From Rickettsiales bacterium (GTDB lineage Bacteria; Pseudomonadota; Alphaproteobacteria; Rs-D84): a DNA stretch of 64,000 nt. Position numbers and translations under genes: made by a program. How positions within the stretch are numbered: position 1 is the first letter of the stretch; each line of letters opens with the position of its first letter. The stretch lies in contig JAITQO010000016.1 of assembly GCA_031288835.1 (NCBI GenBank), forward strand, positions 8,167 to 72,166. The letters are read 5' to 3'. The notes below the pieces were generated by a model. It had not been told where the DNA came from, ran no database searches, and saw only the letters and a list, made by a program, of their open reading frames with translations. This document shows positions 2,725 to 18,394 of this stretch, piece by piece.

Positions 2725-2843
2725 ATCCGGTTGGCCCTTCGGCGCCGCAACGGAATGACGATATCTTTGTTATTATCCGCCCCTACAAAACTAATGGTCG
2801 GTCGGTAATTAGTTGCTAACTTTCCCATACTTCAATACCCAAG

Positions 2844-3271: not shown

Positions 3272-3283
3272 TTATGGTCGGGG
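3272..3283. repeat. left copy of 12-bp direct repeat TTATGGTCGGGG (putative att core)
   Basis: Identical 12-mer at 18383..18394, where it overlaps the 3' end of tRNA-Pro. Locally it forms the dyad CCCCGA-ttatgg-TCGGGG (3266..3283). Confidence 0.6.
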
Positions 3284-3406
3284 AGCCGAAGGTTATATAA
3301 TAGGAGCAATCCGAAAGCCACGGAATCTATCAGTGATTGATTTACAAACTCCCCGACCACCAGTTTTCCGGCTGGTGGTTGAACCATATAACAAGGGAGT
3401 AAAAAA

Positions 3407-3700
3407 ATGGCAGATTTCAAATTTGACGGCAGAGACCTTTATGACCGCAAACGTGTTAGCAACGTTGCCAAAATGGTCGGAAATCATATTAGCGTAAAAG
3501 GACAATATGTTGCCGACATCGATGGAAAATATATCCGTATCAAAGGCCGCAGGGTGGCAGAGTGGGACGGCAAGACCATTCGGATAAACGGACGTAGCGT
3601 TGCCGATGAAAGACAAATCGAAAGAGATATAGATTGTCGGGACGTGGATATGAATACCATCGCCATGTGGGTGGTTATGAACACAATTCTTGCGGAGTAA
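3407..3700 (+). CDS. small repeat protein (beta-hairpin repeats; resembles what I recall as '4-fold beta flower' proteins)
   Basis: SD aagggag 8 nt upstream. Internal repeats: VKGQYVADIDGKYIRIKGRRVAEWDGKTIRINGRSVAD. First gene of a tightly packed operon. Confidence 0.6.
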   Translation: MADFKFDGRDLYDRKRVSNVAKMVGNHISVKGQYVADIDGKYIRIKGRRVAEWDGKTIRINGRSVADERQIERDIDCRDVDMNTIAMWVVMNTILAE

Positions 3701-3703
3701 AAA

Positions 3704-3922
3704 ATGGCATCTTGTATAATATCGTCGGGAATGAAAGTCTGCGCGACCTGCGCGTTTTGGTCTGGCGACCGAAAACTCAACGGATTTTTGCGACGTGTGG
3801 AAGTGCAAAGCGGCAACACGAAAGGCACTTGTCAAAGCGGAGGGCGAAATAGGTTTAATACGAATGCAATGGCTCATTGCCCCGACTATGAAACGCACCC
3901 CGTGTTGATGAAAAGGAAATAA
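3704..3922 (+). CDS. small Cys-rich protein (possible zinc-binding)
   Basis: Starts 3 nt after the previous stop. CxxxxxxxxCxxC...C...C pattern (C4, C13, C16, C43, C59). Confidence 0.5.
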   Translation: MASCIISSGMKVCATCAFWSGDRKLNGFLRRVEVQSGNTKGTCQSGGRNRFNTNAMAHCPDYETHPVLMKRK

Positions 3923-3924
3923 AT

Positions 3925-5178
3925 ATGCAAATAAATATCCGGCGCGGCGCGGACACGATAGGCGGAACGGCGGTAGAACTGACCGCCAACAATGGGGACA
4001 GGATTATCCTTGACCTTGGTCTGCCTTTGGATGCGGAAGAAAATACCGCCGCATTATTGCCGGATATAAAAGGACTGACGGCCAAGATTCCCGACTTGAA
4101 AGGTTTATTCATCTCTCATTCGCACCAAGACCATTTCTCGCTCGGCAAACATATAGACCCTGCGATTCCGATTTATATGGGCAAGGCCGTCGACACAATA
4201 ATCAAAGCAACGGCGGACTATTTGACCAAGGCAAAAGAAGCACTGCCCGATTTGGAACTTCCGGAAATGTTCTCGTTCAAGAATGTCAGACATATCGAGG
4301 GTTTTGTTCCTGTACAAGTCGGCGCGTTCAAGGTCACGCCATATCCTGTCAACCATGCCGCCTATGAATCATTCGCGTTCTTGGTAGAGGCGGATGGCAA
4401 GAGGATTTTCTATACTGGCGACTTCCGCAATCATGGGCGCACGAACAAGCGCACGGAGCATTTAATATCCAATCCGCCATCGGACATCGATGTCTTGCTG
4501 ATGGAGGGGTCAAGCATAGAACGTCTGAATCCGGACGAGCATTTTGAGACGGAAGAGGAATTGGAAAAGCGCATGGCGGAAGTGTTCCGCAATACTCGCG
4601 GTCTGTGCATGGCTCATTCGTCCTCGCAAAATATAGACCGCATTGTCACGATTTATCGCGCCGCCAAATAGACGGGCAGGATTTTGGTCATGGCAAGCTA
4701 TACCGGATTCATTCTGATGAAATTGCAGAATGAAAATCTGCCGAGCTTCACATGGGATGATGTCAAGAAACTGATTGATAAGACTCACGGCAGAAAGCAC
4801 GAAATCATTCCCGAATATATCGAATCCATGACAAGGGTCGGGAACTTCAAATACGTCTATGTCATCGGGCGCGGCGGCCTGCCGTGGCTTGAACGATGCG
4901 GATTGCTTAATCCGGACGCGCACTATATCTATTCCATGTGGTCGGGATACAAAGACAAACTGGCCAAGGAGGTCGTAGATAAAATGCGCGAGCGCGGCGT
5001 TCCCATGACCGACACAAGCGGCCATGCGGACGTTCCGACCTTGCGCCGATTTGTAGAGGCGATAAAGCCGAAAGTACTTGTCCCGATACATACTTTCCAC
5101 CCCGACCAATTCCCCGACTTGTTCGGCGAATATGCCAAGGTGGAACTTCTTAATAACAACGAGCCATGGGAGGTATAA
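3925..5178 (+). pseudogene. beta-CASP-type MBL-fold metallo-hydrolase/nuclease interrupted by one in-frame TAG
   Basis: ORFs 3925..4671 and 4684..5178 are in the same frame, separated only by TAG 4669..4671 (...IYRAAK*TGRILVMASYTG...). The N-part has HxHxDH (ISHSHQDH). The C-part has TSGHADVPTLRRFVEAIKPKVLVPIHT, resembling beta-CASP motifs B/C. Confidence 0.7.
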
Positions 5179-5179
5179 G

Positions 5180-5539
5180 ATGGTTGAAAAATTATTCAAT
5201 GGAAGAACGGAAAAAATAGTTCCCCTTATGGATTTATTCTTATCCGCCCGCGATGAATTAGAAACGGCGGTCGATGAAAGAAAACCTGTGGACGCGCACA
5301 ATACCCTTCTACACGTGGTGGAATTCTTGGGCGAATCCGAAACCCTTTTCAAAGGCGAGTCTTGGGAAAGCATGATGGTCAAGACCCGCGAAGATATCAA
5401 AAAGTGCTTGGATAAATTTTCCGCCGACTATGCCAATAAAGATACCGCAAGTAAAGCCCTTGATTATCTGTTGGGAACGGCGGACGAGTACGTAGAGAAA
5501 TTATACGATGTGAGGCATTCCCTCGAAAAAATTATATAA
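5180..5539 (+). CDS. hypothetical helical protein (119 aa)
   Basis: ATG 5180 lies 1 nt after the MBL stop and is preceded by ggagg. The track ORF 5078 overlaps the upstream gene and is unlikely to be the start. Confidence 0.55.
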   Translation: MVEKLFNGRTEKIVPLMDLFLSARDELETAVDERKPVDAHNTLLHVVEFLGESETLFKGESWESMMVKTREDIKKCLDKFSADYANKDTASKALDYLLGTADEYVEKLYDVRHSLEKII

Positions 5540-5557
5540 ATAAAAAAGGAGAAAACG

Positions 5558-6559
5558 ATGGCGGCCAAGAAGAAAGAAAAAACGACTACACTGCAAAAGC
5601 AAGCGATACCGCGAACCATATCGAACAAGTTCATTTATGACCTTGGCAATCCGGAGGGGATTTTGTATCCGATTTTCGAGTATGCGCGGGATGACGAAGA
5701 GCTGTCGATTCAAATCCGCGATGGTTATGTGAATGTCTATTACCTCGGCGGAAGTATGCTCTGCATTTGGGCAAGCGGCGATAAATACATCGCCACGCAA
5801 GACTCGAACTATCTTAAAGGAACAAAGGTGTCGGCCAAAGAGGAAATTAAAACCTCGGTCGATGCCTCCTCGGTCGCATGGTCGTTCAAACAACGCAAAG
5901 ATGCCATGAAGAAAAAACTCGAAACCAAGAATACGGACGAGAAAATCTTTCAGCAGAAATTGTATAACGCGAACCGCAAAGGCGGGCTTGTGGTCGTGGA
6001 CACCGAAGTCCAAATCCCAGGCGATGTGTGCGAGTTCCTTTACAAGCTAGAACCGAAAGTCCGCCATCCGCGCTTTGACATGGTTGGGCTGTCCAAGATG
6101 GAAAACGGCAAATACCGCCCCGTGCTGATTGAAAATAAATGGGGGACGAAAGCCCTCTATGGCAAGGACGGGGTCGAAGACCATGCAAGGGATATGCTCC
6201 GGTTCGTGCGCTCGCGCTTTTGGGCATATTATATGGACGAATTGGAGGAACAGGCCGCGCAGTTGCAACGGCTTGGGCTGATAGAATTGGACAGATTCTT
6301 CTGCATCGACCGCGAGGAATATCCGGAGATGATGTTCGTCCTTGGGGATTCCAAAATGGAGTTGAAAGAATTGGAAGCCATGCGGGACAAGATGGTGGCC
6401 ACCATCAAAAAGGAAAAGAAAAAGCCGTCATGGATAGGATATAATCTGACCATCAGTGCGCTGACGAAATCGGCCACCAAGGATGATTACGCGATAGGCA
6501 TGAACTCTCGCACCCGCAAACCTTGGCTGACCGCCGCCATATCTGTCGGACAATCATGA
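5558..6559 (+). CDS. PD-(D/E)xK-like nuclease-fold protein (hypothetical)
   Basis: SD aaggag before the ATG. Candidate catalytic pattern ...DTEVQ...RFDMVGLSKMENGKYRPVLIENKWG (D...ExK). Last gene of the plus-strand operon, convergent with vsr. Confidence 0.5.
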   Translation: MAAKKKEKTTTLQKQAIPRTISNKFIYDLGNPEGILYPIFEYARDDEELSIQIRDGYVNVYYLGGSMLCIWASGDKYIATQDSNYLKGTKVSAKEEIKTSVDASSVAWSFKQRKDAMKKKLETKNTDEKIFQQKLYNANRKGGLVVVDTEVQIPGDVCEFLYKLEPKVRHPRFDMVGLSKMENGKYRPVLIENKWGTKALYGKDGVEDHARDMLRFVRSRFWAYYMDELEEQAAQLQRLGLIELDRFFCIDREEYPEMMFVLGDSKMELKELEAMRDKMVATIKKEKKKPSWIGYNLTISALTKSATKDDYAIGMNSRTRKPWLTAAISVGQS

Positions 6560-7021
6560 GCGTTTTATCCCAAGAAAGTCGCACAGCCGAGACAATAACG
6601 ACTGACGGCTGTGCGGAAACAAAGGGCGGAGCTTCTTAAGAAGTTTCGCCCTGTTTTTATTTTTCAGCTCGCATTCCCAAACACGAATCACGCGCCATCC
6701 TTTGGATTGCAGGATTTTCGAAACTTCAAGGTCGCGTTGTTTGTTACGGGCGATTTTGGGAGTCCAATATCTCTTGTGCGTTTTTGGCGTATTAGTCCGG
6801 CAGTCATGGCCGTGCCAAAAACACCCGTCCGCAAAAACCGCGATTTTTAACTTCGGGAACACGAAATCCGGCTTGCCGATTATCTTAAACCCGCGCCGCC
6901 ATCCCTTAATTCCAAGTTCCCGGAACACGGCCGCGAGTTTTAATTCCGTAGACGCATTGTTCTTTGAACGAACGCGACTCATAACCCACGATCGAGTTTC
7001 TTTGTCCAAGATATCAGCCAT
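6554..7021 (-). CDS. vsr: very-short-patch repair endonuclease
   Basis: TRSWVMSRVRSKNNASTE...GKPDFVFPKLKIAVFADGCFWHGHDC...YWTPKIARNKQRD...GWRVIRVWECEL matches the Vsr signature. SD aagga 7 nt upstream. Confidence 0.9.
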   Translation of the reverse strand: MADILDKETRSWVMSRVRSKNNASTELKLAAVFRELGIKGWRRGFKIIGKPDFVFPKLKIAVFADGCFWHGHDCRTNTPKTHKRYWTPKIARNKQRDLEVSKILQSKGWRVIRVWECELKNKNRAKLLKKLRPLFPHSRQSLLSRLCDFLGIKRS

Positions 7022-7047
7022 GGCGAATCCTTAAATCCAAGAGCATT

Positions 7048-9654
7048 TTACTTATTTTCTATCTCGATATCGTACTTTTTCTCTCTTTGTAAAAACGCAT
7101 CTTTAGAACCTTCCAACATTAAAATATCTTCCCTATGTGATAAGTTTTCAATAGAAGTCACCGATATATCGGTTTGAGTTTTTTCGGTAGAGTTTGGCTT
7201 TAACACAATCACCAGGTCGCTGTCTCCATTAACAACGATATTCGCATTATGTGTTGCAAATATTAGCTGGCGTTGTTTTTTGATAGACTTGATTATATTT
7301 ACCAAGTCTTTTGCTATCATCGGTTGGTCTAGGTGGGTTTCAGGTTCATCAATGATTAACGGTTTTGTCCCAAAAATCAATAGAACTAATAAGATTGCTG
7401 TCGCTCTTTGCCCAAAAGATAGCTTATCAAGCGACTTATCTTGGTATAAGATATCGTAGTTTATATAATCAGAATTATAAAAATACTTTAATAAATTCAA
7501 ATCATATATATCTTGATTTTCATTTTGTTGAAAATATTGCAATAGAATACCGTAAGTGTAATTTTTAGATTTAGTATTATCCAACGTTCTGGTATAAATT
7601 CCGTCAGCCGTAAGAACAATCGCAGATTCAAAATCAACATGAGCCCTAGTATCGATATTTTTAGAAATAAACTTGGCATAAAATTCCTTTTTCGCAACAT
7701 CGGTATTGTACGAATACTTGAAATTTAGGTCGCTAATTTCACTTTTGCTTTGCAGTTTCTTTATGTTTTGTACGGTAATGGCAAATATTTGCGTGAGCGC
7801 ATTTGTATAATCGGCATAAGCTAATTTTATCAAACGCGATAATTCTGTTGTACTTTTTATGCCTGATTTTAAACTTTTATTATTATTTTCGATTGTTGCA
7901 ATTTCTGCTGTAGTCTCTCTAAGCTCTTCTTCTGCATTGATAGAATTTTGAATTAGCTCTTCCGACAAACTGCGTTTTTCTAGATATGTCTTAAGGTCGG
8001 CCTTGTGTTTTGTTAACCCTAACAATAAATTCTTCTCTGTTTGTGATACGTCAGGCAATGGATTATCAGTTTTTATCGTTTGCAATGCTAGCACTATTTT
8101 CTTATACGATTCGCTATAACACGTATCGCCAACAACATCAATTGACAATGGAATCTTAACATTTCTGACTTCATTGATAATTTGGATATATGCGTCTTTT
8201 ACCTGCTTTATCTTTCCAAGCTCCTCAACCGCATTTTTTATGTTTTTTGATATTGATTGGTATTCTTCAGTACTCAAACCACTTATAATAGTTTCGTCTT
8301 TTTTCTTTATGTCATTTAAGGTTTTTAGTTTGACATTATTTTCTTTAATGGTGTTCAGATTTGATATAGCTACGTCTACTTCTTTCTGCAGTTTGCACAA
8401 TTCATCGCGAGGTTTGGTTAAAACATCAATAACCTTCGATAGCGGCATTGTTGGTTCTGGTTGATAGTCTTTTTTCTGCCAATACTCCTCTAATTTTTTT
8501 ATTATTTTATCATTTAACTTTGCGGGATCTCTATAAGAGCTTTCTATTTCATTTTGCCCAAAATATTCATAAATAGTATTTGGAATAGATACGCTGTTAT
8601 CTATATCTAACTCATTCATCCATGACAACTTATCGATATCTGAGATGTTTTCCTTCGCCAGACATTGAAGCAATAAGCTTTTTCCAGTACCTCGCCCTCC
8701 AATTATGCAGTTTAGACCAGGATTAAACGATATTTTCTGATTTACTCCTGAAAAACAAAATGGAATTTGTGAAATTGTTAAGCCGGCCTTGAACTTCAAA
8801 TCTATTTCTGTTATGTAGTCTAGAGCATCTATCGGAGATTCTATCGCAAGGCGAATTCTATTAACGTTGGGTAATAAAGCTTGGCGCAAAGTTTCAAATG
8901 CCGCATCTCCTTTTATCCAAGTAAAACTGCGCCCTATTTTATTACTGGCGTTCTCGGTACTATAATTGTGCGCGTCTGAGAAATGCAAATATGGTCGTTT
9001 ATACTGAGATTCGCATATCTTGTGATTGGATAACGCATTCTCAAGCGTTGGGCTCGCATTAGATAAAAATTTTATTTCTTCTAATAATGCAGACGGTATT
9101 TCACTAGGATTGCCTGTTAGATAATCAATGGTTGTAATATCGGCGAATTCGTTCTTACCATAAAATAAAATGATTTTTTTATCTAGCTTTTGTTTCTTTA
9201 ATTCATTACAAATATCGTCTTTTTTGTAAACCAATAAATGTTTATCCGTATAATTTGCATCATCCTGGCTAGGACTACTTGGACATGGGCGCAGCGCATT
9301 TATAAATCTGTCGATATCATTTTCGCATCCTTGGTCAAAGATGATATGCATATTTATATTTTTTCCGCCATCATTCGTCCACTCAATGCGATATTCAATT
9401 GCCGGTAGTATGAGCGCGATATTTTGCAACCTACCCTGTTTTTTGAATTCCAGGACTTTTTTGTATCCGTCCAATATTACATAATCACATATACCGATGA
9501 TGCTTCCGTCCGGATAGTTATTTTTATTTTCTAAATCCAGTATAAAAGATTCCCATTTGGTCTCGTTAGAATCTCCTGTAAAATTGTTATGACTGGAAAC
9601 CGGCGTATGTATATGCAAATCCCACTTCCGCCATTCTGAACCTCTATACGACAT
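7048..9654 (-). CDS. PHP-domain phosphoesterase fused to SbcC/Rad50-like ABC ATPase (Ppl/TrlF-like, from memory)
   Basis: N-terminus WRKWDLHIHTP (PHP HxH). Walker A GGRGTGKS. About 400 aa of Lys/Glu/Leu-rich, probably coiled-coil sequence. Signature/Walker B LSFGQRATAILLVLL...PLIIDEPETHLD, then ATHNANIVV. ATG 9654 has SD aaggtg; the track start GTG 9663 is an alternative. Codon usage is very AT-rich compared with neighbours. Confidence 0.75.
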   Translation of the reverse strand: MSYRGSEWRKWDLHIHTPVSSHNNFTGDSNETKWESFILDLENKNNYPDGSIIGICDYVILDGYKKVLEFKKQGRLQNIALILPAIEYRIEWTNDGGKNINMHIIFDQGCENDIDRFINALRPCPSSPSQDDANYTDKHLLVYKKDDICNELKKQKLDKKIILFYGKNEFADITTIDYLTGNPSEIPSALLEEIKFLSNASPTLENALSNHKICESQYKRPYLHFSDAHNYSTENASNKIGRSFTWIKGDAAFETLRQALLPNVNRIRLAIESPIDALDYITEIDLKFKAGLTISQIPFCFSGVNQKISFNPGLNCIIGGRGTGKSLLLQCLAKENISDIDKLSWMNELDIDNSVSIPNTIYEYFGQNEIESSYRDPAKLNDKIIKKLEEYWQKKDYQPEPTMPLSKVIDVLTKPRDELCKLQKEVDVAISNLNTIKENNVKLKTLNDIKKKDETIISGLSTEEYQSISKNIKNAVEELGKIKQVKDAYIQIINEVRNVKIPLSIDVVGDTCYSESYKKIVLALQTIKTDNPLPDVSQTEKNLLLGLTKHKADLKTYLEKRSLSEELIQNSINAEEELRETTAEIATIENNNKSLKSGIKSTTELSRLIKLAYADYTNALTQIFAITVQNIKKLQSKSEISDLNFKYSYNTDVAKKEFYAKFISKNIDTRAHVDFESAIVLTADGIYTRTLDNTKSKNYTYGILLQYFQQNENQDIYDLNLLKYFYNSDYINYDILYQDKSLDKLSFGQRATAILLVLLIFGTKPLIIDEPETHLDQPMIAKDLVNIIKSIKKQRQLIFATHNANIVVNGDSDLVIVLKPNSTEKTQTDISVTSIENLSHREDILMLEGSKDAFLQREKKYDIEIENK

Positions 9655-9669
9655 TCTGTACACCTTAAC

Positions 9670-10659
9670 CTATTTTTTCGCAAACAGCGTTTCGGATGGC
9701 TTCCAGTCTTTGGCCATCTCGTCGGCCTTTTCAAGCCACTTGCGAATCCTGTCTTTCGGAGAAACAGACTCGCTCCAATACTCTACAAACAATTCGTCAT
9801 CCATGACCAACGCGGCCTTTTTCATATCGTCTTCCAACAACTGCAAAGCCCGTGCTATGTAGATTCCGCCTTCGTCGTCATTGAACGGATTGGCGACGCT
9901 TCCGGCGGAAAACAAATCTCGCGCCTGATGGCACAGAACGCCGTGATACGTAAGCAGATAGAGAACCGCGTCATCGTATTTGTTTTTTGCGCCGCTAGGT
10001 TTGACCACGCTTGGGCAAAGCAAAACCGCTTCCGCTCGAAGACGAGTTTTTTCTTCCATCGGCAGATGCGTGTAAAGCCGCACCTGTATCGGCAAGGTAT
10101 GCTCGTCATTCTCTTTGTCTTCCAGCCACCACAGACGCTCGCCTTGCTGCAATCTTCCGCGAGCATAGCCGCGAATATGGCGCATCTTGTCTTCCATCGA
10201 CATTTTCCTAAAATCGTCGTACTTAACGCCCATCAGCTCGAACAGCGGATGCTCGGTGGACAATTCGACCTCGAACCTTGGAACATGGGACGTGCGGACA
10301 TGGCAGACGCTTTTTTCATAATCTCCCCACCGAACCTCCGGCTTACCGCCCATCTTTCCAAAAACCAAATAAACCTTTTTGACGCTTTCGATGCGATTGG
10401 TTTCAAGAACGCTGTTGGCCACGCTCCGCCATGCGTCGTTCAGAGTAAATTTTACTTCGACGCCGAAATCGCCCATATCCACATCGGGAAAAGCTTGCGG
10501 ATGCGGATTGAAGTCCACAGAATAGCCGGACAAATCGCGCAGGACTTCTCTGACCCTGTTCTCAAAAACAGCGGGCGCATTGAATCGCCCTTCTTTTGCC
10601 TCCGCTGTCAGCCGCTCGCACGCCCTGCCGAGCAGCTGTTCGAATTCTTCCTGCTTCAT
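9670..10659 (-). CDS. type II restriction endonuclease candidate (PD-(D/E)xK)
   Basis: FPDVDMGDFGVEVKF is a PD...ExK motif. ATGA 4-nt overlap with the upstream C5-methyltransferase gene. Confidence 0.65.
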   Translation of the reverse strand: MKQEEFEQLLGRACERLTAEAKEGRFNAPAVFENRVREVLRDLSGYSVDFNPHPQAFPDVDMGDFGVEVKFTLNDAWRSVANSVLETNRIESVKKVYLVFGKMGGKPEVRWGDYEKSVCHVRTSHVPRFEVELSTEHPLFELMGVKYDDFRKMSMEDKMRHIRGYARGRLQQGERLWWLEDKENDEHTLPIQVRLYTHLPMEEKTRLRAEAVLLCPSVVKPSGAKNKYDDAVLYLLTYHGVLCHQARDLFSAGSVANPFNDDEGGIYIARALQLLEDDMKKAALVMDDELFVEYWSESVSPKDRIRKWLEKADEMAKDWKPSETLFAKK

Positions 10660-11594
10660 GTTTCATCCCCTGTTAGTATAGATTCTACCGATTGCGCCAC
10701 GTGCCAAGCCAAGACCGGAGGCACGGCGTTTCCTATCTGACGCTCCGTTTCCCTCAGCTTTGACGCGAACAGAAAGGAATCTGGGAAAGATTGTATCCTT
10801 GCGGCTTCGCGCATAGAAATTCTGCGCGGCAAAGAATAATGAAACTGGATATTGCCATGGCACTCCGCGCGCATCGTGTATCCAGGCCTATCGGCTTTCA
10901 GCTTGCGATTGCCTTGCTCGGTGGTTTTATTGGCCGCGCTCCATATATGGCTGAAAGCTTCATTCTGCGGCATATCCTCAAGGTCTGCTAATGCATTCTT
11001 GGCCGTAACCGGCTTTGCGCCTAGCGGCCTTGGCGGCGTGAATTTCGGAATATCTTTTCTTGTTCCGACAATCATAACTCTTTCCCGCGTCTGCGGCACG
11101 CCGTAGTCTGCGGCATGATAAAGGTTATAGGTTACGTCATACCCTAATGCGCGAAAATCTTTCAGAATCTTTTCCAAATCTTTTTCATGACACTTCATCA
11201 GCAAGCTTTTGACATTTTCTGCGATAAAAACTTTCGGTTTCAATTTGCGGACGATTTCAACCATGTACGAATACAGGCCGCTTCTCGCGCCCGCTATGCC
11301 CGCCATTTTCCCATTTATGGATATGTCTTGGCATGGGAACCCACCGATAACGACATCAGCGTATTCAGGCAGTTTATCCATAATCTGCGTTATATCCCCC
11401 TCAACTATATGGCCGCTTATGTTGCGGCGATAGGTATCGCACGCGGCGCGGTTGATTTCGTTCGCCCAAATAACCTCGAAGCGATTCTTTTTGTAATGCT
11501 TGCCCAAGAAATCAAAACCGCCGACAAAGCCCAAGTCCATGCCGCCGCATCCGGAAAAAAGCGATAAAATTGTTATTGGTTTCTTGTCGGTCAT
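10656..11594 (-). CDS. dcm: DNA (cytosine-5)-methyltransferase
   Basis: Motifs LSLFSGCGGMDLGF (I), GGFPCQDIS (IV), AENV (VI), QTRERV (VIII), GNAVPPVLA (X). ATG 11594 is preceded by ggag; the track start 11615 is less likely. Confidence 0.9.
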   Translation of the reverse strand: MTDKKPITILSLFSGCGGMDLGFVGGFDFLGKHYKKNRFEVIWANEINRAACDTYRRNISGHIVEGDITQIMDKLPEYADVVIGGFPCQDISINGKMAGIAGARSGLYSYMVEIVRKLKPKVFIAENVKSLLMKCHEKDLEKILKDFRALGYDVTYNLYHAADYGVPQTRERVMIVGTRKDIPKFTPPRPLGAKPVTAKNALADLEDMPQNEAFSHIWSAANKTTEQGNRKLKADRPGYTMRAECHGNIQFHYSLPRRISMREAARIQSFPDSFLFASKLRETERQIGNAVPPVLAWHVAQSVESILTGDET

Positions 11595-11652
11595 ACGCGC
11601 TCCTCTACAATACATATGTTATATGCTTTGTTGTTTTTTTTCAAGTCCTAAA

Positions 11653-11973
11653 TCAGCATTCGTCGGTCAACATAACCGATAAAATTCTGCGGTTTTTTGA
11701 TGAATTGTCCGGATTTGCGCTGATTCTCTGAGATTGCGCCTCTAGGCAGTCGATTTGGAATAAAATCGTTCTGCCGGACAGATTAAAGAATCCAAAATCA
11801 TGCTCATCGCTAGGATTGCCCCCGAAGTCATCAAACTCCATTATCTTTTTAATGGCCGCTATCTGCGTTCGCGGCGACAGAGCGCGAACTCCTTGCGTGA
11901 AAAATACCTGCCCATCGGACAGAGTGCGCCGGAATTCATCATTAAGCTTTCTTATTTTTAGCACGTCGCGCAT
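11653..11973 (-). CDS. DUF3768-like protein
   Basis: IRKLNDEFRRT...SDEHDFGFF...RILSVMLTDEC resembles DUF3768. ATG 11973 has SD aaagga; the track start is a TTG at 11997. Confidence 0.65.
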   Translation of the reverse strand: MRDVLKIRKLNDEFRRTLSDGQVFFTQGVRALSPRTQIAAIKKIMEFDDFGGNPSDEHDFGFFNLSGRTILFQIDCLEAQSQRISANPDNSSKNRRILSVMLTDEC

Positions 11974-12000
11974 ATTAAATTCCTTTCGTTGTTGCAATGA

Positions 12001-12040
12001 ATGCTTACGATTCGGCTTAAGTCAAGTCTATTAGTACGGA
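12001..12040 (-). promoter_or_regulatory. conserved island promoter/operator element, copy A
   Basis: 33/40 ungapped identity with 14661..14700. Contains TTGACT flanked by ACTAAT...(A)ATCGT. Ends 27 nt upstream of the DUF3768 ATG. Confidence 0.55.
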
Positions 12041-12200
12041 CATTCATCTTTAAGCTTGTCATCGTGTGTCGCATTGAGTCGTTTTGCGACCATTGCTGGT
12101 AGTGGCAACAGAAAAAATCCCTATTATATTAACTGCAACAAGCCGACTGACGCTATTGCGTTGGTCATAAATTAACAATGGCAATCAAGGAGAAAATACC

Positions 12201-12575
12201 ATGCCAAAAAATTCAATAAAAGAAAAAAATGAAAGGAAAATCCGCTCGGACAGAATGCATTCCACAATAAAGAAACCTCAAGGGCTCATTACTAACGAAC
12301 ACGCATGGAATGGCAACAAGTTGTTGCGTGAGCTCCCGCCGTATACGATAAAGCAGTCCGTAAAAAAGGACTGCCAACTAGCTTTTGTAAAGGCGATACA
12401 GCTTGAAGCTCAAAAAATTTTTGAAGAGGTGAAACAGGCGGCCTCGCTTTTGGGCAAGAACCAAACTCTAGAGATTTGGGGTCTGATGATAAATATCGCC
12501 ACTTGTTGCGATGAGATAAAACGGGACGTAGATGCCGTTCAAAGCATCACGCCTTGGAATGAAATCGGCGGATAA
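12201..12575 (+). CDS. hypothetical protein
   Basis: ORF with SD aaggag 8 nt upstream; no recognisable motif. Confidence 0.5.
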   Translation: MPKNSIKEKNERKIRSDRMHSTIKKPQGLITNEHAWNGNKLLRELPPYTIKQSVKKDCQLAFVKAIQLEAQKIFEEVKQAASLLGKNQTLEIWGLMINIATCCDEIKRDVDAVQSITPWNEIGG

Positions 12576-12631
12576 GAACAACAACACTACCGCCGTGCCA
12601 ACGGCGGTAGGTACAAACAAAGGAAAAAATT

Positions 12632-13054
12632 ATGGAAAATTCAGAATATAAGGTAGGCAAAAATCGCCCACCGATAGAGACACGCTTCAAGCCAGGGGTT
12701 TGTCCGAACCCCTTGGGGCGCAAGAAAGGGACGCTTTCTTTGACCACCATCTTGCAAAAGATTCTCGACCAGAAAATCACCCTGTCCGAGAATGGCAACA
12801 AGGTGCGAGTTAGTAAAAGGCAGGCCGTTACCATGAGATTGGTGGCCGAGGCACTTGCGGGCAAACCGCGAGCCATTGCTCTTTTATTGCCCATCATAAA
12901 TACCGCCGATGAAAAACGCGAGGCGCAGGAAGCGGTCACAAAATCCATGTCAAAAACAGACCAAGAAATACCTAGCCGAACACAAGGGAGGAAACAATGT
13001 TTAAGAAAATTAAGGGGCTTAATGCCAAGCAACAGCTGTACGTTAATTTTATGA
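12632..13054 (+). CDS. DUF5681-like protein (phage small-terminase-associated family)
   Basis: KVGKNRPPIETRFKPGVCPNPLGRKKG matches the DUF5681 N-terminal signature as I recall it. Lies directly upstream of the TerL fragment. Confidence 0.6.
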   Translation: MENSEYKVGKNRPPIETRFKPGVCPNPLGRKKGTLSLTTILQKILDQKITLSENGNKVRVSKRQAVTMRLVAEALAGKPRAIALLLPIINTADEKREAQEAVTKSMSKTDQEIPSRTQGRKQCLRKLRGLMPSNSCTLIL

Positions 13055-13208
13055 ATGTTCAGTCTCGCAAGCGCGAGGAGGAAGAGGAGAAGGAAGAAAT
13101 AGTTTCGGCGGGCTTTCCAGAATCTTTAGCAGAACGTCGTCGCCGCTTGCTTAGAGGCGACAAGTTCGCATCGCGCACGACGTTCCGAAAAATAAAACGG
13201 AGCGCGTC

Positions 13209-13430
13209 ATGAATAACGTTGTCTCGCCTCAAGATTTCCTCTCGGCCATCTTCCGTGACGACCCTGTCAGTTTTGTCCGCAAGGTATTTGCCGAAGTATC
13301 GGGAGCTTCCACATATCAACACAACTGGCACATCGAACATATTATCGCGCACCTGCTAGATATGCGTGATGGCCACTACAATCGTGAAGTGATAAACATC
13401 CCTCCCCGCGCACTCAAATCCATGCCCCAA
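13209..13430 (+). pseudogene. terminase large-subunit N-terminal fragment
   Basis: ...HNWHIEHIIAHLLDMRDGHYNREVINIPPRALKSM resembles the TerL N-terminus up to the PPRxxKS ATPase loop. Beyond about 13430 the ORF runs antisense to minus-strand genes and loses similarity. ORF 12997..13212 may be a frameshifted upstream piece. Confidence 0.5.
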
Positions 13431-13562
13431 GATATAGAACACGTTGCCCTCCGGACTGGCGAGGTCTATGACCACGCCAGTCGGGACACGCGCCCCATCT
13501 ATTATTTCCTGCTGTTTCTTCGCGGCGGCGAGTTTTCTTTCAATAGAGTATATGTTTTCCAT
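13356..13562 (-). CDS. small hypothetical phage-like protein
   Basis: 68-aa ORF. IDLASPEGNVFYILG resembles a small phage protein family. Its 3' end overlaps the TerL remnant. Confidence 0.3.
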   Translation of the reverse strand: MENIYSIERKLAAAKKQQEIIDGARVPTGVVIDLASPEGNVFYILGHGFECAGRDVYHFTIVVAITHI

Positions 13563-13574
13563 AGTTTTTCCTTT

Positions 13575-14192
13575 TTATCCACGGGCGTAGTAGTAGCTCC
13601 ACCACTGCCTCATTTCCTCGATGGTCAGCTTGGCGATGTTATGCAACACCTTGCCGCTTGTGATTTGGCCTTGCATATCAACCAAGCGGTCTGCCAAGTG
13701 GCGGCCAATGCGATTGTCCAAGAACCGCATAATCTCGAAATCCTTTTTCTCCGGATACAGGGACTTGATTTTTCCGACCATCTCCAACCAAATCTTTTTG
13801 GTCACGGCCTCGGAGAATCCGCCTGCCGACCTAATCGTTCCGTAGAATCCCCATTCGGGATTCTGAGTGTTCACGACCGCCGTCCGTTTTCCGGTAATTT
13901 CGATTCCGACATAGCGGGCGTAGTCATAGCCCTCCGGATTTATCAGAAGCGATGGGCGACCTTTCGATGTGACGCGAATCCATTTGTCATCGCCGCCCTT
14001 GCGCGAGATGAATGAGAAGGTGTCGAAGAAGTTATCGATGAGCGCGTCATAGTTCTTTTTATCAAGGTCGATGGTTTCGACCACCACGACCAATTCTATG
14101 TCGTCAATCGAACGCGCCTTGGTTTGTTTTTCAAGGTCGTCCATGTCGATTGGCTTGCGGATGATTATTGCTTGTGCTTTTTCTTTTGGCAT
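13575..14192 (-). CDS. hypothetical protein
   Basis: 205-aa ORF, separated by 2 nt from the upstream DUF2924 gene; no recognised motif. Confidence 0.5.
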   Translation of the reverse strand: MPKEKAQAIIIRKPIDMDDLEKQTKARSIDDIELVVVVETIDLDKKNYDALIDNFFDTFSFISRKGGDDKWIRVTSKGRPSLLINPEGYDYARYVGIEITGKRTAVVNTQNPEWGFYGTIRSAGGFSEAVTKKIWLEMVGKIKSLYPEKKDFEIMRFLDNRIGRHLADRLVDMQGQITSGKVLHNIAKLTIEEMRQWWSYYYARG

Positions 14193-14194
14193 TT

Positions 14195-14632
14195 TTATGC
14201 TCCTTTGTTGTTGAACCCGAAGAAGTCATAGCCCGACACCTTGTGACCGCAGATGAGCGTTGCGATGGCGGACAGACTCTTGTAGGTTTGGTTTTCATAG
14301 TTGAACTCGTCGGGCGCGGTCACATGAACCATGTAATCCTTGCCCTTGAATTTTTTCAGCAGTTGCGTCCCTGGCTTCACGTGGTACTTGGTCTTGTGCG
14401 ACCGCTCTATGCTCTCGTCCGGATTCTCGGAACAGGCATTTAGCTTCGTGACGTGCTTCTGCTCGATGACGAGGCCGCCGCGCTCGCATTGAATCTTGAA
14501 CCACAGCGGTTTGAACTGCGGACGACCGGACGCGAAGTATCGCGCCCACAATTCCTGCAACTGGGATGGAGACAGCGACTTTAATTTCGCCGCCGATTCC
14601 GGCAGGTTTTCAATGCATTTTTTGACTTTCAT
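14195..14632 (-). CDS. DUF2924-like protein
   Basis: ...SPSQLQELWARYF...VKPGTQLLKKFKGKDYMVHV...YKSLSAIATLICGHKVSGYDFFGF matches the DUF2924 pattern. SD aaggag. Confidence 0.7.
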   Translation of the reverse strand: MKVKKCIENLPESAAKLKSLSPSQLQELWARYFASGRPQFKPLWFKIQCERGGLVIEQKHVTKLNACSENPDESIERSHKTKYHVKPGTQLLKKFKGKDYMVHVTAPDEFNYENQTYKSLSAIATLICGHKVSGYDFFGFNNKGA

Positions 14633-14660
14633 AATCGACTCCTTGGTTACACCACAATCA

Positions 14661-14700
14661 ATGCTTACTAATCGGGCTAAGTCAAATCTATTAGTGCGAA
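14661..14700 (-). promoter_or_regulatory. conserved island promoter/operator element, copy B
   Basis: ACTAATagatTTGACTTagcccgATTAGTAAGCAT (minus-strand reading). Ends 28 nt upstream of the DUF2924 ATG. Confidence 0.55.
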
Positions 14701-14721
14701 AAGCGCAGAAAGCCCCTTTCG

Positions 14722-16038
14722 TTATCCCTCGCGCTTGGCGCGATGTTCCGCCAACAGCTCGTCATACTTCCTGCCGCTTGCCGCATGGATGACATCGCCG
14801 CCGAAGCATTGCTGATAGCGGCGGATTATCGTGTCCACGTACAATCCCTCGTATTCTATGCCGTAAAAAACGCGCTTGGCCTTTTCGCAGGCGATAAGGC
14901 ACGAACCACTTCCGGCAAAACTATCAAGAACAATATCGCCGCGATTGCTGACATCTAAAATGGCCGAGCGCAGGAGTTTTTCCGGCTTGCTAGTCGGGTG
15001 CATTTTGAGCGCGGCTTTATTCTTGCCAAAGACGTTCACGCCATAGCAAGACCAAACGTTGCTACGCACGCGCCCTGTCGAACCGAGGAGTACATTATTG
15101 ACATGGCTTTCTTTGCCGTTCTTGAAGACGTGAATTTCTTCGTACTGACTGCGCCACAGCGAACCCGTTCCAGGGACGATTTTGTCCCATATGCATTTGT
15201 TGACGTAGCCGGAGAACACGGCGCGTCCCGCCGAGAGGATATGCCACCCGTGCCGCCAATCCATGAAATTCAGGTGCAACGAGCCATCGGTGGAATACTT
15301 GGCGCACAGGCGGAAATTTGACGTGAGGAAATCGACGAATTCTCCATCGTTCATCTCGCCGGACGCAAAGGCGAATTCCTTGTGCTTTGTTTCGCCTGCG
15401 CCGCATACATGGCCTTGCACCTTGACGTTGAACGGCGGGTCTTGCACGCACAGGTTCGCTTTCTTGTCGCCGAATAGGATTTGGAACGATTCCTCTTTCA
15501 AACTGTCGCCATGATAGAGGCGATGGTCGTTGGGAAAAAGCCAAAGGTCGCCCATGACGGACACAACATCGTTTTCTTCTATCAGCGGCGCGGAGTTCAG
15601 TTTCGGGTCTTCCTCCTTCTGCTCTTGTATAAGGTCAAGCTTCACGGAATCATATCCGCTGAGCTCGATTTCGATGTCAATATCCGCGCAAGCCAATTCC
15701 AGTTCTTCAAGCTCGATCTTGAGCAACTGCTCGTCCGTTTTTCCTAACTCCCCAAGGCGGTTGCTTGCCAGTGCCTGCAGTCGCGCCTTTACATCGCCGA
15801 GGTCTGCATACATGACAGGGATGCTTTCCAATTCCAAAAGCTTGGCCGCCTCCCATCGGCAATGGCCGGATATTATTTCGCCGTCCGGCTTTGCGAGGAT
15901 TGGCTCGTTAAATCCCAATTGGCTGATGATTTCACTTGTTTTCTGAATCTGCCCTTTTGAATGCTTTTTTACGTTTCGCAGAGATGGGCGGAGAGTCGAT
16001 GGGTTCACATATTTAATTTCTAAATCGTTTGTTTTCAT
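14722..16038 (-). CDS. ParB-like N-terminal domain fused to beta-class N6A/N4C DNA methyltransferase (orphan)
   Basis: ParB-like N-terminus (...NPSTLRPSLRNVKKHSKGQI...PILAKPDGEIISGHCRWEAA). Motif IV VQDPPFNV comes before motif I VLDSFAGSGS, which is the beta-class order. Confidence 0.8.
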   Translation of the reverse strand: MKTNDLEIKYVNPSTLRPSLRNVKKHSKGQIQKTSEIISQLGFNEPILAKPDGEIISGHCRWEAAKLLELESIPVMYADLGDVKARLQALASNRLGELGKTDEQLLKIELEELELACADIDIEIELSGYDSVKLDLIQEQKEEDPKLNSAPLIEENDVVSVMGDLWLFPNDHRLYHGDSLKEESFQILFGDKKANLCVQDPPFNVKVQGHVCGAGETKHKEFAFASGEMNDGEFVDFLTSNFRLCAKYSTDGSLHLNFMDWRHGWHILSAGRAVFSGYVNKCIWDKIVPGTGSLWRSQYEEIHVFKNGKESHVNNVLLGSTGRVRSNVWSCYGVNVFGKNKAALKMHPTSKPEKLLRSAILDVSNRGDIVLDSFAGSGSCLIACEKAKRVFYGIEYEGLYVDTIIRRYQQCFGGDVIHAASGRKYDELLAEHRAKREG

Positions 16039-16131
16039 AATAACACCTTTTTGTTTTTATTAGGTGTAATATAATTCTAGGGAAATTTATCCGCCACTGC
16101 CGATGATGGTCGTAATGCGACATTAAGAGAC

Positions 16132-16155
16132 AAAAACGCCGGTCTTGCGACCGGC
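16132..16155 (-). terminator. Rho-independent terminator after HTH gene
   Basis: Minus-strand reading GCCGGTC-gcaa-GACCGGC followed by GTTTTTG. Confidence 0.6.
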
Positions 16156-16161
16156 GAATTG

Positions 16162-16395
16162 TTATGCGACTCTGCAAAAAGAGTCCGACAAGTACTTATT
16201 CACGGCTTCAACCGGATAAAGGATATTTTTTCCGCGTTTATAAAACGCGATACCCTTTCTGGCATTCCGCCATCTCATAAGCGTGCGCGGGTCACAACAT
16301 AAAATTGTGCTGACTTCTTTAGGGGAAAGCTCTCCCTCAAAGACCACTTGTTTCGGAGTTCTATCTGTCGCTGGCTGAAGTTTGTATCTTGCCAT
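16162..16395 (-). CDS. helix-turn-helix DNA-binding protein (excisionase/AlpA-like)
   Basis: 77 aa; ...EVSTILCCDPRTLMRWRNARKGIAFYKRGKNILYPVEAVNKYL. Divergent from the recombinase gene. Confidence 0.6.
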   Translation of the reverse strand: MARYKLQPATDRTPKQVVFEGELSPKEVSTILCCDPRTLMRWRNARKGIAFYKRGKNILYPVEAVNKYLSDSFCRVA

Positions 16396-16474
16396 CGGAG
16401 ATACCCCCTTGATGAAAATGGGTTAACTCCTGGGAAACGCCTAAAACCAGTATTGTTTGGTTTTTGTGCTGTCT

Positions 16475-16492
16475 GAGTCCTGTACAGGACTC
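16475..16492. promoter_or_regulatory. perfect 18-bp palindrome GAGTCCTGTACAGGACTC (candidate operator)
   Basis: Located in the divergent HTH/recombinase intergenic region. Confidence 0.5.
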
Positions 16493-16597
16493 CGCGACGT
16501 TTACCCCATTAATATAGCGCGATTTTTTTAATTTTCAAGCCCCCCTGTATTTCCGTCTAAAAATCTGCATTTGCACCCCTAAAACAAAGTTATTTTT

Positions 16598-16637
16598 TAG
16601 TCGCTAATTAATTTGACTTCCTGCGATTAGTAAGGCC
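16598..16637 (+). promoter_or_regulatory. conserved island promoter/operator element, copy C
   Basis: gCTAATtaatTTGACTTcctgCGATTAGTAAGg; 27/40 ungapped identity to copy B. GTAAG ends 30 nt upstream of the recombinase ATG, the same offset as copies A and B. Confidence 0.5.
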
Positions 16638-16664
16638 AAATGGACGTAACAAAGAGGTAGAAAC

Positions 16665-18153
16665 ATGAACAAAACCAAATGCGCGATATACGTCCGAAAG
16701 TCCAGTGAGCGCGGACTCGACCAAGAATTCAACAGCTTGGACAATCAAGAACTCGCGTGCAAGAGCTATATCACGTCACAGCAGTTCCAAGGATGGCGGC
16801 ATATTAAAACATACGCCGATGGAGGCATCTCCGGCGGCACGATGGCGCGGCCTGGATTGCAGGAACTACTGACCGACATCCGCGATGGGAAAGCTGACCT
16901 TGAATATGCTCCTATCGTTCGCAGAGTTCGAGCGCGAGATCGCGTCCGAGCGCGTACGCGATAAAATGAGAGCGACCAAATCCAAAGGATTGTGGGTCGG
17001 CGGCGTGCCTCCGCTCGGCTACGATATAGAATACGGAAAACTCGTTCCGAATGAAACCGAAATCCCCATCGTGCTTGACGTGTTCAATACATATTTGGAA
17101 AGCACCGGACTAATGGAATGCCGCGACAAGATTATCGCCAAAGGCATCCATCGCAAGGAGTGGACAACTAAAAAAGGTGAAATAAAAGGCGGATTGGAAT
17201 TTATCTGCAACAGCGTGGAACGGATTCTGAAAAACCAAATCTACCTTGGCAAGCTTCCCAACAAATCCACCAACGAGGTGTTCGATGGTCAGCACGAAGC
17301 CATCGTGCCGCAGGAGCTGTTCGATGCCGTTCAGAAAAAACTCAGCGACAATAACAATCATAAGGACAGACCATACTGCCGTGGGCTACCGCTCCTGCAC
17401 CAAAAGGTATTCACCGCCGATGGGGTTCAGTTCAAGAATCAGAAATGCAATAAAGACCAACTCCGCCAGTACCGCTACTACAAATGCGGCAAGGTATCGC
17501 TCCCTGCCGGAGACGTTGAAACCATCGTCTGCGACCAAGTCAAAAAGTTCCTGGACTCTGATATGTTCTGCCTAACCAAAGACAAGCGCGGAGAGTTGAA
17601 AAAATTGGAATACAGCGAGCCGCTAGTAAAACAGATAGTCGACAGAGTCGTGTACGCAAACCATAAACTGACCATCTTCCTCAATGTGGCTGACATGGAT
17701 GGCCTCGCGCCGTTCAAGAAAGACGGATACATCAACCAAGCGAATGAGTTCATGGACAGCTATCTGACCGAGGATGGCAAGCAGGCTGTGCTTGAAAAAG
17801 AGATATTCATATCAAGCCGGACTTGCATCAACCGCCTGCACGAGGGCGGCGAAGTCAACGTGCTGACCAAGACCGAAACCGCGACCATGCTCATCAAGGC
17901 ATTGTCCTACGGGTGGAAATACAAAAAGGATTATGAGTCCGGCACAGGTATCAAAGCCCTTGCCGAGCAGGAACAGCGCAATCAGCGAACCATATACAAA
18001 TATCTGAACCTTGCATACCTGTCGCCGAGGATTACCAACGACATCATGAACAACGAAATCCCCACAGGCATGAACCTGCAGACCCTGTTCAAGATTGCGT
18101 CTGCCTGCGATGACTTCTCGGTGCAGGAAAAGTTCTTCTACGCCGCCGCATAA
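16665..18153 (+). pseudogene. large serine recombinase with internal out-of-frame deletion
   Basis: ORF 16665.. (CAIYVRKSSERGLDQEFNSLDNQ...YADGGISGG...RPGLQELLTDIRDGK) switches frame at gATGGGAAAg (16885..16892) into ORF 16885.. (GKLTLNMLLSFAEFEREIASERVRDK...). The roughly 45-aa segment normally carrying the DRLSR-type motif is absent. Confidence 0.75.
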
Positions 18154-18176
18154 GCCCCCCCCATACCATAGTCAAC

Positions 18177-18200
18177 CCGCCGGAAACGGCGGTGATTTTT
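18177..18200 (+). terminator. Rho-independent terminator after recombinase gene
   Basis: CCGCCG-gaaa-CGGCGG followed by tgaTTTTT. Confidence 0.6.
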
Positions 18201-18348
18201 CGCGCCGTCCGGCGCGTGCGCTGGCTTTATTGACTCGGTGGAAATGGGCATTGTATAGAAAGCCGGATATTTGGCGGCAAAAAGGCACTTTCGAACCCCA
18301 TACCTAAGTCAATAGATGTGTGAAGCCCGCAGATAGCGGGCTTCACAC

Positions 18349-18375
18349 GAGAAAAGTCGCCGTGACTGGCGACTT
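18349..18375 (-). terminator. hairpin plus T-rich tract downstream of tRNA-Pro
   Basis: Minus-strand reading AAGTCGCC-agtcac-GGCGACTT-TTCTC. A second 13-bp-stem hairpin lies at 18318..18348. Confidence 0.4.
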
Positions 18376-18382
18376 CCTAATC

Positions 18383-18394
18383 TTATGGTCGGGG
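18383..18394. repeat. right copy of 12-bp direct repeat TTATGGTCGGGG
   Basis: Covers the last 9 nt of tRNA-Pro (CCCCG-A-CCA on the minus strand) plus 3 nt of trailer. Confidence 0.6.

Follow-up and report, generated by a model that had tools for sequence, protein, structure and literature searches.

The question raised by this locus is where an island that lies against a tRNA gene begins and which recombinase brought it there. The locus is part of a 64,000-nucleotide stretch (positions 8,167 to 72,166 of contig JAITQO010000016.1, GenBank assembly GCA_031288835.1), referred to here as the window, from a Rickettsiales bacterium whose 789-kb genome assembly (G000; completeness, 82.6%) originates from a termite-gut metagenome run (X1). 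We find that window positions 2802 to 18392 (15,591 bp, with one copy of the crossover core counted) are a horizontally acquired island at the extreme 3' end of tRNA-Pro(UGG). An initial annotation had bounded this island by a perfect 12-bp direct repeat; the true distal junction is located at 2794 to 2801, about 480 bases outside that repeat. The account as a whole, in which a single serine-integrase island entered at tRNA-Pro, its recombinase was later broken, and the 12-bp match is coincidental, is very probably correct.

Two ends of an island at tRNA-Pro

The composition of the window changes at both ends of the island. GC content falls from 0.55 to 0.58 to about 0.45 near 2.7 kb and is back to at least 0.555 past 18.5 kb. 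Over positions 2802 to 18385, it is 0.461, compared with 0.52 for the genome, which ranks in the bottom 0.2% when windows of equal size are taken across the assembly; by tetranucleotide profile, the same segment deviates more than any of these. The initial annotation had proposed a composition check, and the discontinuity is there, with breaks at about 2.8 kb and 18.4 kb; its placement of an island of roughly 15 kb at the extreme 3' end of tRNA-Pro stands. Deviant composition is one mark of a genomic island integrated in a tRNA gene (tDNA). An intact tRNA at one end (18386 to 18462) with its displaced 3' fragment, CCGACCA(T), at the other (2794 to 2801) is a second, and an on-board integrase gene near the tRNA, although inactivated in this case, is a third.

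At the right end, ARAGORN and Rfam both identify an intact tRNA-Pro(UGG), the integration target, at 18386 to 18462 on the minus strand. The tRNA-proximal copy of the core, ATGGTCGG (18385 to 18392, minus strand), consists of the last 7 nt of the tRNA, CCGACCA, plus 1 nt. Between the tRNA and the stop codon of the recombinase gene lie about 230 nt (18154 to 18384, minus strand) that form the P' arm of the attachment site of the island (attP). This arm is single-copy, has no Rfam family, and is conserved past tRNA-Pro in three related genomes (G003, G010, and G017); in two others (G004 and G008), the sequence departs from it directly after CCA. The P' arm contains an island-borne hairpin followed by a T run, the terminator of the tRNA (18352 to 18375), a second hairpin (18318 to 18348), two TTGACTnnGGTATGGGG motifs (18159 to 18175 and 18296 to 18312), and a TATACAATGCCCATTT box (18242 to 18257).

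At the left end, the chromosomal flank on the B' side (2725 to 2793) is the intergenic stretch after a gene for a 156-amino-acid (aa) protein. GC content is core-like to about 2.7 kb, and the flank carries a repetitive extragenic palindromic (REP)-like repeat of 27 to 37 nt (2734 to 2770) that the genome contains at least 9 times, in several cases at the end of a contig. The distal crossover core, ATGGTCGG (minus strand, CCGACCAT), is found at 2794 to 2801 on the minus strand; it is made up of the displaced 7-nt tail of tRNA-Pro and 1 further nt. When the two core copies are extended (2791 to 2801 and 18382 to 18392), 10 of 11 positions match. Adjoining the distal core is the P arm of attP (2802 to 2831, minus strand), which together with the core reads GTATGGGAAAGTTAGCAACTAATTACCGA-CCGACCA and then TTAG to 2791 (2831 to 2791). 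It includes GTATGGGAAAG, a relative of TTGACTnnGGTATGGGG that is conserved across genera (2812 to 2830).

Homology of the arm to other islands was observed directly. In a BLAST comparison of the island with all fetched loci, island-type homology begins exactly at 2794, and no homology to other islands was detected to the left of this position. The 24-nt arm motif (2795 to 2818; minus strand, TAGCAACTAATTACCGACCGACCA) was recovered from 11 of 201 family genomes, with a single copy in each, and not at all from a reversed control. G148 and G211 carry it at distances of 9.4 and 13 kb, respectively, from a recombinase gene and tRNA-Pro, on the same contig and in the orientation seen in the window, and in G036 the P arm is identical, is accompanied by about 75 nt of near-identical iteron sequence, and is present as two successive copies. 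All arm motifs are single-copy in the G000 assembly. Just inside the P arm, the window carries five iterons, AACAGGG(A/T)AA, on the plus strand (starting at 2844, 2855, 2965, 2986, and 3007; span, 2844 to 3016). Since TTCCCTGTT repeats occupy the equivalent position in five other islands (G017, G148, G211, G081, and G036), the iterons are part of the backbone and not a chance feature. The TTGACTnnGGTATGGGG-type motifs may be binding sites for accessory factors, which would be unusual for serine-integrase att sites; that these motifs and the iterons serve as accessory-protein or replication sites is speculation.

The orthologous island of G017 provided a junction that could be defined by an empty site. 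G017 is a near-complete genome with an intact recombinase gene and a neighboring gene for a DUF2924 protein, and its tRNA-Pro locus was compared with those of 40 congeneric species. In G095, an island-free sister species of G017, the tRNA is followed by its native terminator, which reads GAAAATTCAAACCGTCGCAAATGCGGCGG.... The same sequence recurs in G017 at a distance of 10.8 kb (71 bp, 91.5%), after ...TAGCAACTAAATACCGA-CCGACCA. This displaced tail defines the G017 island and shows that its 7-bp core, CCGACCA, is the last 7 nt of the tRNA; the G017 junction is thereby validated base for base. Short-repeat BLAST alone had returned only noise for the distal end of G017, which was solved by the comparison with sister species. 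The G017 island (L033; G017:C2, 144101 to 154942; 10.8 kb) ends distally in TAGCAACTAAATACCGACCGACCA, which the arm of the window matches over 25 nt at 96%. The search for an empty tRNA-Pro site that the initial annotation had recommended was therefore successful for the orthologous island (G017 versus G095), while none was found in the genus of the window; because of this, the left junction in the window rests on arm homology together with the validated orthologous island. The crossover is bracketed to the common 7-bp core, CCGACCA. A dyad center for attP could not be assigned from its CTAAT...ATTAG symmetry, which gives inconsistent centers in G000 and G017.

Several other genomes carry rearranged versions of these ends. 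In G051, G053, and G016 (L119, L114, and L116), a P arm is fused via the core to a P' arm, as expected for the attP-like joint between tandem copies; the G053 joint retains merely a 33-aa recombinase tail. G101 has a recombinase relative (41% identity) near tRNA-Pro and has kept the native terminator after the tRNA, so not every tRNA-adjacent relative uses the tRNA tail, and at least one subgroup has a site that lies farther downstream. G076 (L102), G073 (L099), and G219 (L100) have the tRNA-Pro 3' end and the native terminator duplicated about 190 bp downstream, and the duplications bracket a small insert with tRNA-like T-arm sequence. Together with G101, these loci suggest a second bacterial attachment site (attB) just downstream of tRNA-Pro. 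Separately, P' remnants without a recombinase remain as scars at tRNA-Pro in G003 (L032) and G010 (L027).

A broken serine recombinase and its relatives at tRNA genes

The gene that adjoins the tRNA was described in the initial annotation as encoding a serine recombinase, which is correct, and this part of the annotation had passed over the fact that the gene is broken. It is a large serine recombinase pseudogene (16665 to 18153, plus strand) in two pieces, an N fragment (16665 to 16964) and a C fragment (16885 to 18153), and is convergent with tRNA-Pro, its stop codon lying 232 nt from the tRNA 3' end. The Pfam Resolvase domain matches the N fragment at model positions 2 to 65 and the C fragment at positions 109 to 144, in different frames, with positions 66 to 108 missing. 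The C fragment matches the full model of the Recombinase domain (PF07508, 1.7e-14); past this domain, in the C-terminal region where large serine recombinases have a zinc ribbon and a coiled coil, there is no Pfam match, and cysteines are present (…YCRG…KC…YYKC…). An active catalytic domain combines a serine nucleophile with a D-R-L-x-R pocket. The serine part, YVRKSS, is present in the window gene, and the pocket is absent, whereas the G017 orthologue retains Resolvase positions 2 to 144 of 145 in addition to the Recombinase domain.

Relative to the intact 560-aa G017 orthologue, the window gene lacks residues 87 to 132 (INCVLVYKIDRLSRS...STA), which include KIDRLSRS. The DNA alignment reveals a clean 146-nt gap with its joint at approximately 16885 to 16893 (gATGGGAAAg), and intact genes carry ATGGnAAA repeats at the gap edges. 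The loss, between short direct repeats, takes out the DRLSR active-site segment and puts the remainder of the gene out of frame. The deleted segment corresponds to D81, R82, L83, and R85 of Bxb1. These residues are listed as essential in that enzyme (PMC12884075). The Logan assembly of the source run, which was made independently, has the identical recombinase sequence.

The island is probably immobile, fixed in place, and decaying, because the catalytic pocket is deleted and the assembly contains no second gene with a resolvase domain; the two fragments are its sole Resolvase matches. Three tyrosine recombinases are encoded in the assembly, all outside the island. The initial annotation had also suggested looking for excised circles or empty-site joints. 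None were found in the Logan contigs of four termite-gut runs, although contigs cannot prove absence, and this result counts as weak negative evidence for immobility.

Relatives of the recombinase were present in 76 of 201 sampled genomes of the family, which range from 0.6 to 1.3 Mb. Intact relatives have open frames of about 526 to 584 aa, mostly 530 to 562 aa. A search of the genome contigs for related loci with the recombinase C fragment returned nothing. Linkage to tRNA genes, defined as a tRNA within 1.5 kb of the recombinase, was scored on the 30 best relative loci. A tRNA was found in 22 of these, always convergent, with its 3' end 176 to 1309 nt past the recombinase stop codon; the tRNAs were tRNA-Ser (11 loci), tRNA-Pro(UGG) (9), tRNA-Val (1), and tRNA-Leu (1). 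Of 29 loci, 26 had a DUF2924 gene beside the recombinase gene, either in divergent orientation or directly upstream of it. The group linked to tRNA-Ser has a conserved arm that begins right after CCA. One member of this group, G123 (L121; G123:C2, approximately 11295 to 11470), has an internal joint, ...CCGCCA|GTGATAAG..., and a second copy of the post-tRNA arm, which suggests that the extreme 3' end of tRNA-Ser, too, receives islands in tandem. These features of the tRNA-Ser group are consistent with the same sublocation.

Low-depth contigs from run X2, a second termite-gut metagenome from another study, are 90 to 97% identical to scattered parts of 5577 to 17966, indicating that a close relative of the island exists elsewhere. 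The island backbone is small and consists of the recombinase, its DUF2924 partner, the att arms, and the iterons; in G017, the same recombinase-DUF2924 backbone carries other defence cargo, namely an AlwI-type endonuclease, two D12 adenine methylases, and a KAP NTPase. On balance, we favor the view that the island is the fossil of an undescribed clade of DUF2924-partnered serine integrases that is widespread in reduced-genome gut Alphaproteobacteria. These integrases would target tDNAs, with a core made of the last 6 to 7 nt of a tRNA (Pro, Ser, Val, or Leu), and would shuttle small defence islands between genera; the extra arm repeats would point to an accessory or directionality factor, possibly DUF2924 itself.

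The steps proposed for this island follow the established mechanism of large serine integrases. The recombinase of the window, while still intact, would have catalyzed recombination between attP (P arm, core, and P' arm), carried by the element in circular form, and an attB made of the tRNA-Pro(UGG) 3' end and its native downstream sequence. The attB core would be the last 7 nt of the tRNA, CCGACCA, and the crossover would fall somewhere inside this common 7-bp sequence, with B- or P-specific sequence to its left and B'- or P'-specific sequence to its right. Integration would have left the tRNA intact, with a new terminator supplied by the P' arm of the island (18352 to 18375), and would have moved the original tRNA tail 15.6 kb away to 2794 to 2801, beside the P arm. 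The later 146-nt deletion would then have crippled the recombinase and locked the island in place. Excision would require the integrase and a directionality factor, for which the DUF2924 protein and an HTH_17 protein are candidates. The DUF2924 protein of G017 shows weak similarity to the RAMA domain.

The closest characterized systems are the large serine integrases (TP901-1, SPbeta SprA/YokA, phiC31, Bxb1, and A118), with which the island shares an integrase gene beside one att junction and a short attB/attP core. The best solved relatives of the G017 orthologue are the catalytic domain of the TP901-1 integrase (E value, 5e-23), SprA, and the phiC31 integrase. The island differs from these systems in its target, the final 7 nt of a tRNA gene instead of a protein-coding or intergenic site, in the near-constant DUF2924 neighbor, and in a window copy that is predicted to be catalytically dead. 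Furthermore, classical large serine integrase att sites are simple and about 50 bp long, whereas the arms in this clade carry conserved motifs and iterons 50 to 230 bp from the core. SCCmec (staphylococcal cassette chromosome mec) offers another comparison. Its Ccr serine recombinases act at the 3' end of rlmH/orfX, and SCCmec elements have a short core, carry variable cargo, form tandem arrays, and leave remnants that lack a recombinase. In both systems, islands with a serine recombinase occupy the extreme 3' end of a housekeeping gene that is conserved; the two differ in target gene, host phylum, and recombinase subfamily, and SCCmec lacks a DUF2924 partner.

Islands of the type collected by Islander resemble the present one in having an intact tRNA at one end, a displaced 3' fragment at the other, and an integrase gene beside the tRNA. 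They also resemble it in that the island restores the tRNA and supplies its downstream sequence, and in the occurrence of tandem arrays and scars. The present island differs in using a serine and not a tyrosine recombinase, and its duplicated fragment of 7 to 8 nt is too short for fragment-based finders. [quoted passage not shown] In a limited literature search, the only predicted case of a serine integrase at a tRNA gene was the Paracoccus phage vB_PamS_Pami6, whose serine recombinase has a predicted integration site in tRNA-Met (PMC6536676). Pami6 has in common with the present island its alphaproteobacterial origin, a serine recombinase, and integration predicted at a tRNA. It is a single phage whose site is predicted, set against a whole clade for which the arms are mapped, an empty site is available, and several tRNAs serve as targets. 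The large recombinase survey of Durrant et al. (2022) makes no mention of tRNA, and a limited search for DUF2924 returned Wolbachia papers only, which give no function for it.

We regard the island itself as ordinary, a decaying defence island, and the integrase/att system behind it as the new part. Serine integrases that systematically occupy tRNA 3' ends are documented here with mapped arms and an empty site. Because their attB is a highly conserved tRNA end, intact members of the clade could serve organisms without engineered landing pads. The tempting perfect 12-bp repeat was wrong and the real core is only 7 to 8 bp, so repeat-based island calling fails for serine integrases. On the host side, bacteria with genomes below 1 Mb still gain restriction-modification and defence genes and then fix them by integrase loss.

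The 12-bp repeat, a leader RNA, and alternative readings

As reported in the initial annotation, the window contains the 12-mer TTATGGTCGGGG at 3272 to 3283 and at 18383 to 18394 and nowhere else, and the right copy does cover the last 9 nt of tRNA-Pro, including CCA, and 3 trailer nt according to the ARAGORN and Rfam placements. Allowing at most 1 mismatch, shuffled sequences contained a mean of 0.28 matches, and 2 or more were seen in 5 of 100 shuffles, which makes the repeat only mildly unusual. The left copy is the 3' strand of a hairpin (3266 to 3283) within a structured leader RNA of about 215 nt that extends from promoter to terminator (3150 to 3375, plus strand), as indicated by contiguous genomic copies, Rfam, and the fold. 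The sequence at 3160 to 3390 is a repeated element with five further copies in the assembly (C16:73362-73570, C7:6224-6355, C13:7442-7544, C4:91932-92032, and C11:24115-24203), which makes six in total, and many more in related genomes. The aligned copies have in common a TATAAT-like box, a conserved start at GAATCC, a fold with long-range pairing, and, at the end, a stem-loop with a T run behind it. RNAalifold analysis of the window and C16 copies gave 70 pairs, 9 of them compensatory, including the hairpin CCCCGAtt...atGGTCGGGG, which is conserved in all six genomic copies; in each, the RNA is uninterrupted across 3272 to 3283. Elsewhere in the genome, the leader mostly lies upstream of genes for secreted cysteine-rich proteins, which marks it as a lineage-typical leader and not as the end of an island.

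At the gathering level, Rfam returned tRNAs only. Below it, sRNA-Xcc1 (RF02221) aligned over its whole model to 3277 to 3365, with 38.9 bits against a gathering threshold of 53 bits (E value, 1.4e-5), so that the leader falls short of membership in this family. The likeness is confined to the 3' domain of the leader, and Xcc1 is also found in integron cassettes and islands; the window leader, at about 215 nt, exceeds Xcc1 in length, comes with a promoter-like box and a terminator of its own, and scores below the threshold. As a separate observation, the leader RNA holds the tRNA-Pro 3' end CCCCGACCA both in sense (3347 to 3355) and in antisense (3275 to 3283). We considered whether the hairpin mimics the att core or is a partner of tRNA-Pro. 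GGTCGGGG is present in 5 of the 6 copies, yet conservation of the stem predicts the same, and such a role is unlikely.

The alternative that fares best is a chimeric contig, mis-joined at a 35-mer in the leader RNA, in which the sequence to the left of about 3254, including the P arm, would belong to another locus. The Logan graph does branch at 3254 to 3288, where a second contig with a depth of 7.6 enters the same node. However, read depths match on both sides (20 and 18.3), and the contig that enters there shows 2 substitutions, 2 gaps, and a different depth, so it comes from another strain or species. In addition, the P and P' arms are single-copy, lie on this contig, and have the orientation expected for one island, and the other five RNA copies are internal to their contigs, with none left unpartnered. 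A chimera is therefore very unlikely.

A composite structure, in which 2794 to 3271 is the remnant of an older island and 3272 to 18394 a younger one, had been suggested in the initial annotation by a partial repeat copy at 2794 to 2801. That copy is real, and the annotation's second suggestion, that it marks an alternative outer boundary, identifies the actual junction; the older tandem insertion did not hold. Tandem arrays and scars are indeed present in other genomes (arrays and scars in G051, G053, G016, and G036; P' scars in G003 and G010), and a tandem joint should read P-core-P'. The assembly has one P arm, one set of P' motifs, and no internal att-like joint, and the supposed site at 3272 is the RNA hairpin. 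We consider the composite reading highly unlikely.

The reading of the initial annotation itself placed the island at 3284 to 18382 between the TTATGGTCGGGG repeats, with the dyad CCCCGA-TTATGG-TCGGGG, obtained by joining the outer flanks, as the empty attB. The repeat is exact, its right copy overlaps the true core, and the Logan contigs of the source run happen to break at 3259 to 3283 and 18407 to 18432. These breaks are explained by words that are common to other organisms of the metagenome, the 35-mer (depth of 31, compared with about 19) on one side and the tRNA on the other. The left copy is one strand of a hairpin midway in a conserved multicopy RNA that is contiguous in six genomic copies and in relatives, and 3272 to 3283 therefore cannot be a recombination joint. 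Its flanks resemble neither the P nor the P' arm, and island-type homology and iterons continue leftwards to 2794. The dyad is not a product of joining the flanks, since it is already intact at 3266 to 3283 as the RNA hairpin. The 12-bp boundaries are thus extremely unlikely to be those of the island, and the match is a coincidence of two independently conserved G+C-rich stems, the acceptor end of the tRNA and the leader-RNA hairpin.

Finally, insertion by another agent, such as a lost tyrosine integrase or a generic tRNA hotspot, with the serine recombinase as mere cargo, is hardly credible even though tRNA targeting is classically a tyrosine-integrase trait and, according to the Islander paper, was not known for serine integrases (PMC4383910), because no tyrosine recombinase lies within the island, different genera repeat the combination of this recombinase with a convergent tRNA and with the same P and P' arms, and the backbone of recombinase, DUF2924, and arms recurs in related islands with different cargo in G017.

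A number of points weigh against a single serine-integrase island with its left end at 2794. The core is only 8 bp long, and the window has 8 occurrences of ATGGTCGG, 7 of them on the plus strand, where 2.4 would be expected (8 were reached in 0 of 100 shuffles), so that the repeat is no proof by itself. Within the genus, no genome was found that has an empty site bearing both flanks of the window. Gene order at tRNA-Pro and at the left-flank genes for 393- and 156-aa proteins is not kept in G002, G004, and G005, where unrelated genes follow the latter two; tRNA-Pro on G004:C62 has REP-like repeats alongside and a different upstream gene, and gave no usable comparison. Given the Logan breaks at both sites, the join at the RNA hairpin depends on the original assembler. 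Lastly, the assembly is 82.6% complete and could therefore lack an intact recombinase that acts in trans.

Cargo of the island

The initial annotation had described everything between the 12-bp repeats as phage, plasmid, or defence type and as AT-rich. Restriction-modification, defence, and phage-like genes and the lower GC content are confirmed; the repeats as bounds are not. To the right of the leader RNA, the left part of the island carries a five-gene cluster on the plus strand (3407 to 6559) for a 97-aa protein, a 72-aa protein, a metallo-beta-lactamase (MBL)/beta-CASP nuclease, a 153-aa protein, and a 333-aa protein. Pfam identified Lactamase_B_2 and RMMBL domains in this cluster, and PADLOC returned no match. 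The nuclease gene is split by an in-frame TAG (4669 to 4671) into 3925 to 4671 and 4684 to 5178.

A defence block on the minus strand follows (6554 to 11615) and is the lowest-GC stretch, at 0.33 to 0.35. It comprises Vsr (6554 to 7021; Pfam Vsr), a Ppl-like ABC/SMC ATPase (7048 to 9663; Pfam AAA_21/SMC_N; PADLOC Ppl, 6e-25), a type II restriction endonuclease (9670 to 10659; PADLOC REase_II, 9e-141), and a C5 cytosine methyltransferase, Dcm (10656 to 11615; Pfam DNA_methylase). Next to it are phage-like remnants recognized by Pfam and PHROGs (11653 to 14192). These include DUF3768 (11653 to 11997, minus strand), a 124-aa open reading frame (ORF), DUF5681 (12632 to 13054), a fragment resembling the N terminus of a terminase large subunit (13209 to 14015, plus strand), and a 205-aa ORF on the minus strand that overlaps this fragment. 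The truncated terminase-like ORF and the in-frame TAG of the nuclease gene are further signs of decay.

Closest to the recombinase, all on the minus strand, are the genes for the DUF2924 protein that is the conserved partner of the recombinase clade (14195 to 14632; Pfam, 5e-23), a fusion of ParB with an N6/N4 DNA methyltransferase (14722 to 16038; Pfam; PADLOC MTase_II), and an HTH_17 protein of the excisionase/AlpA-like type (16162 to 16395; Pfam; weak match to a PHROG excisionase). A 44-nt direct repeat with 84% identity is located upstream of DUF3768 (11995 to 12038) and upstream of DUF2924 (14655 to 14698) and is probably a common promoter or operator.

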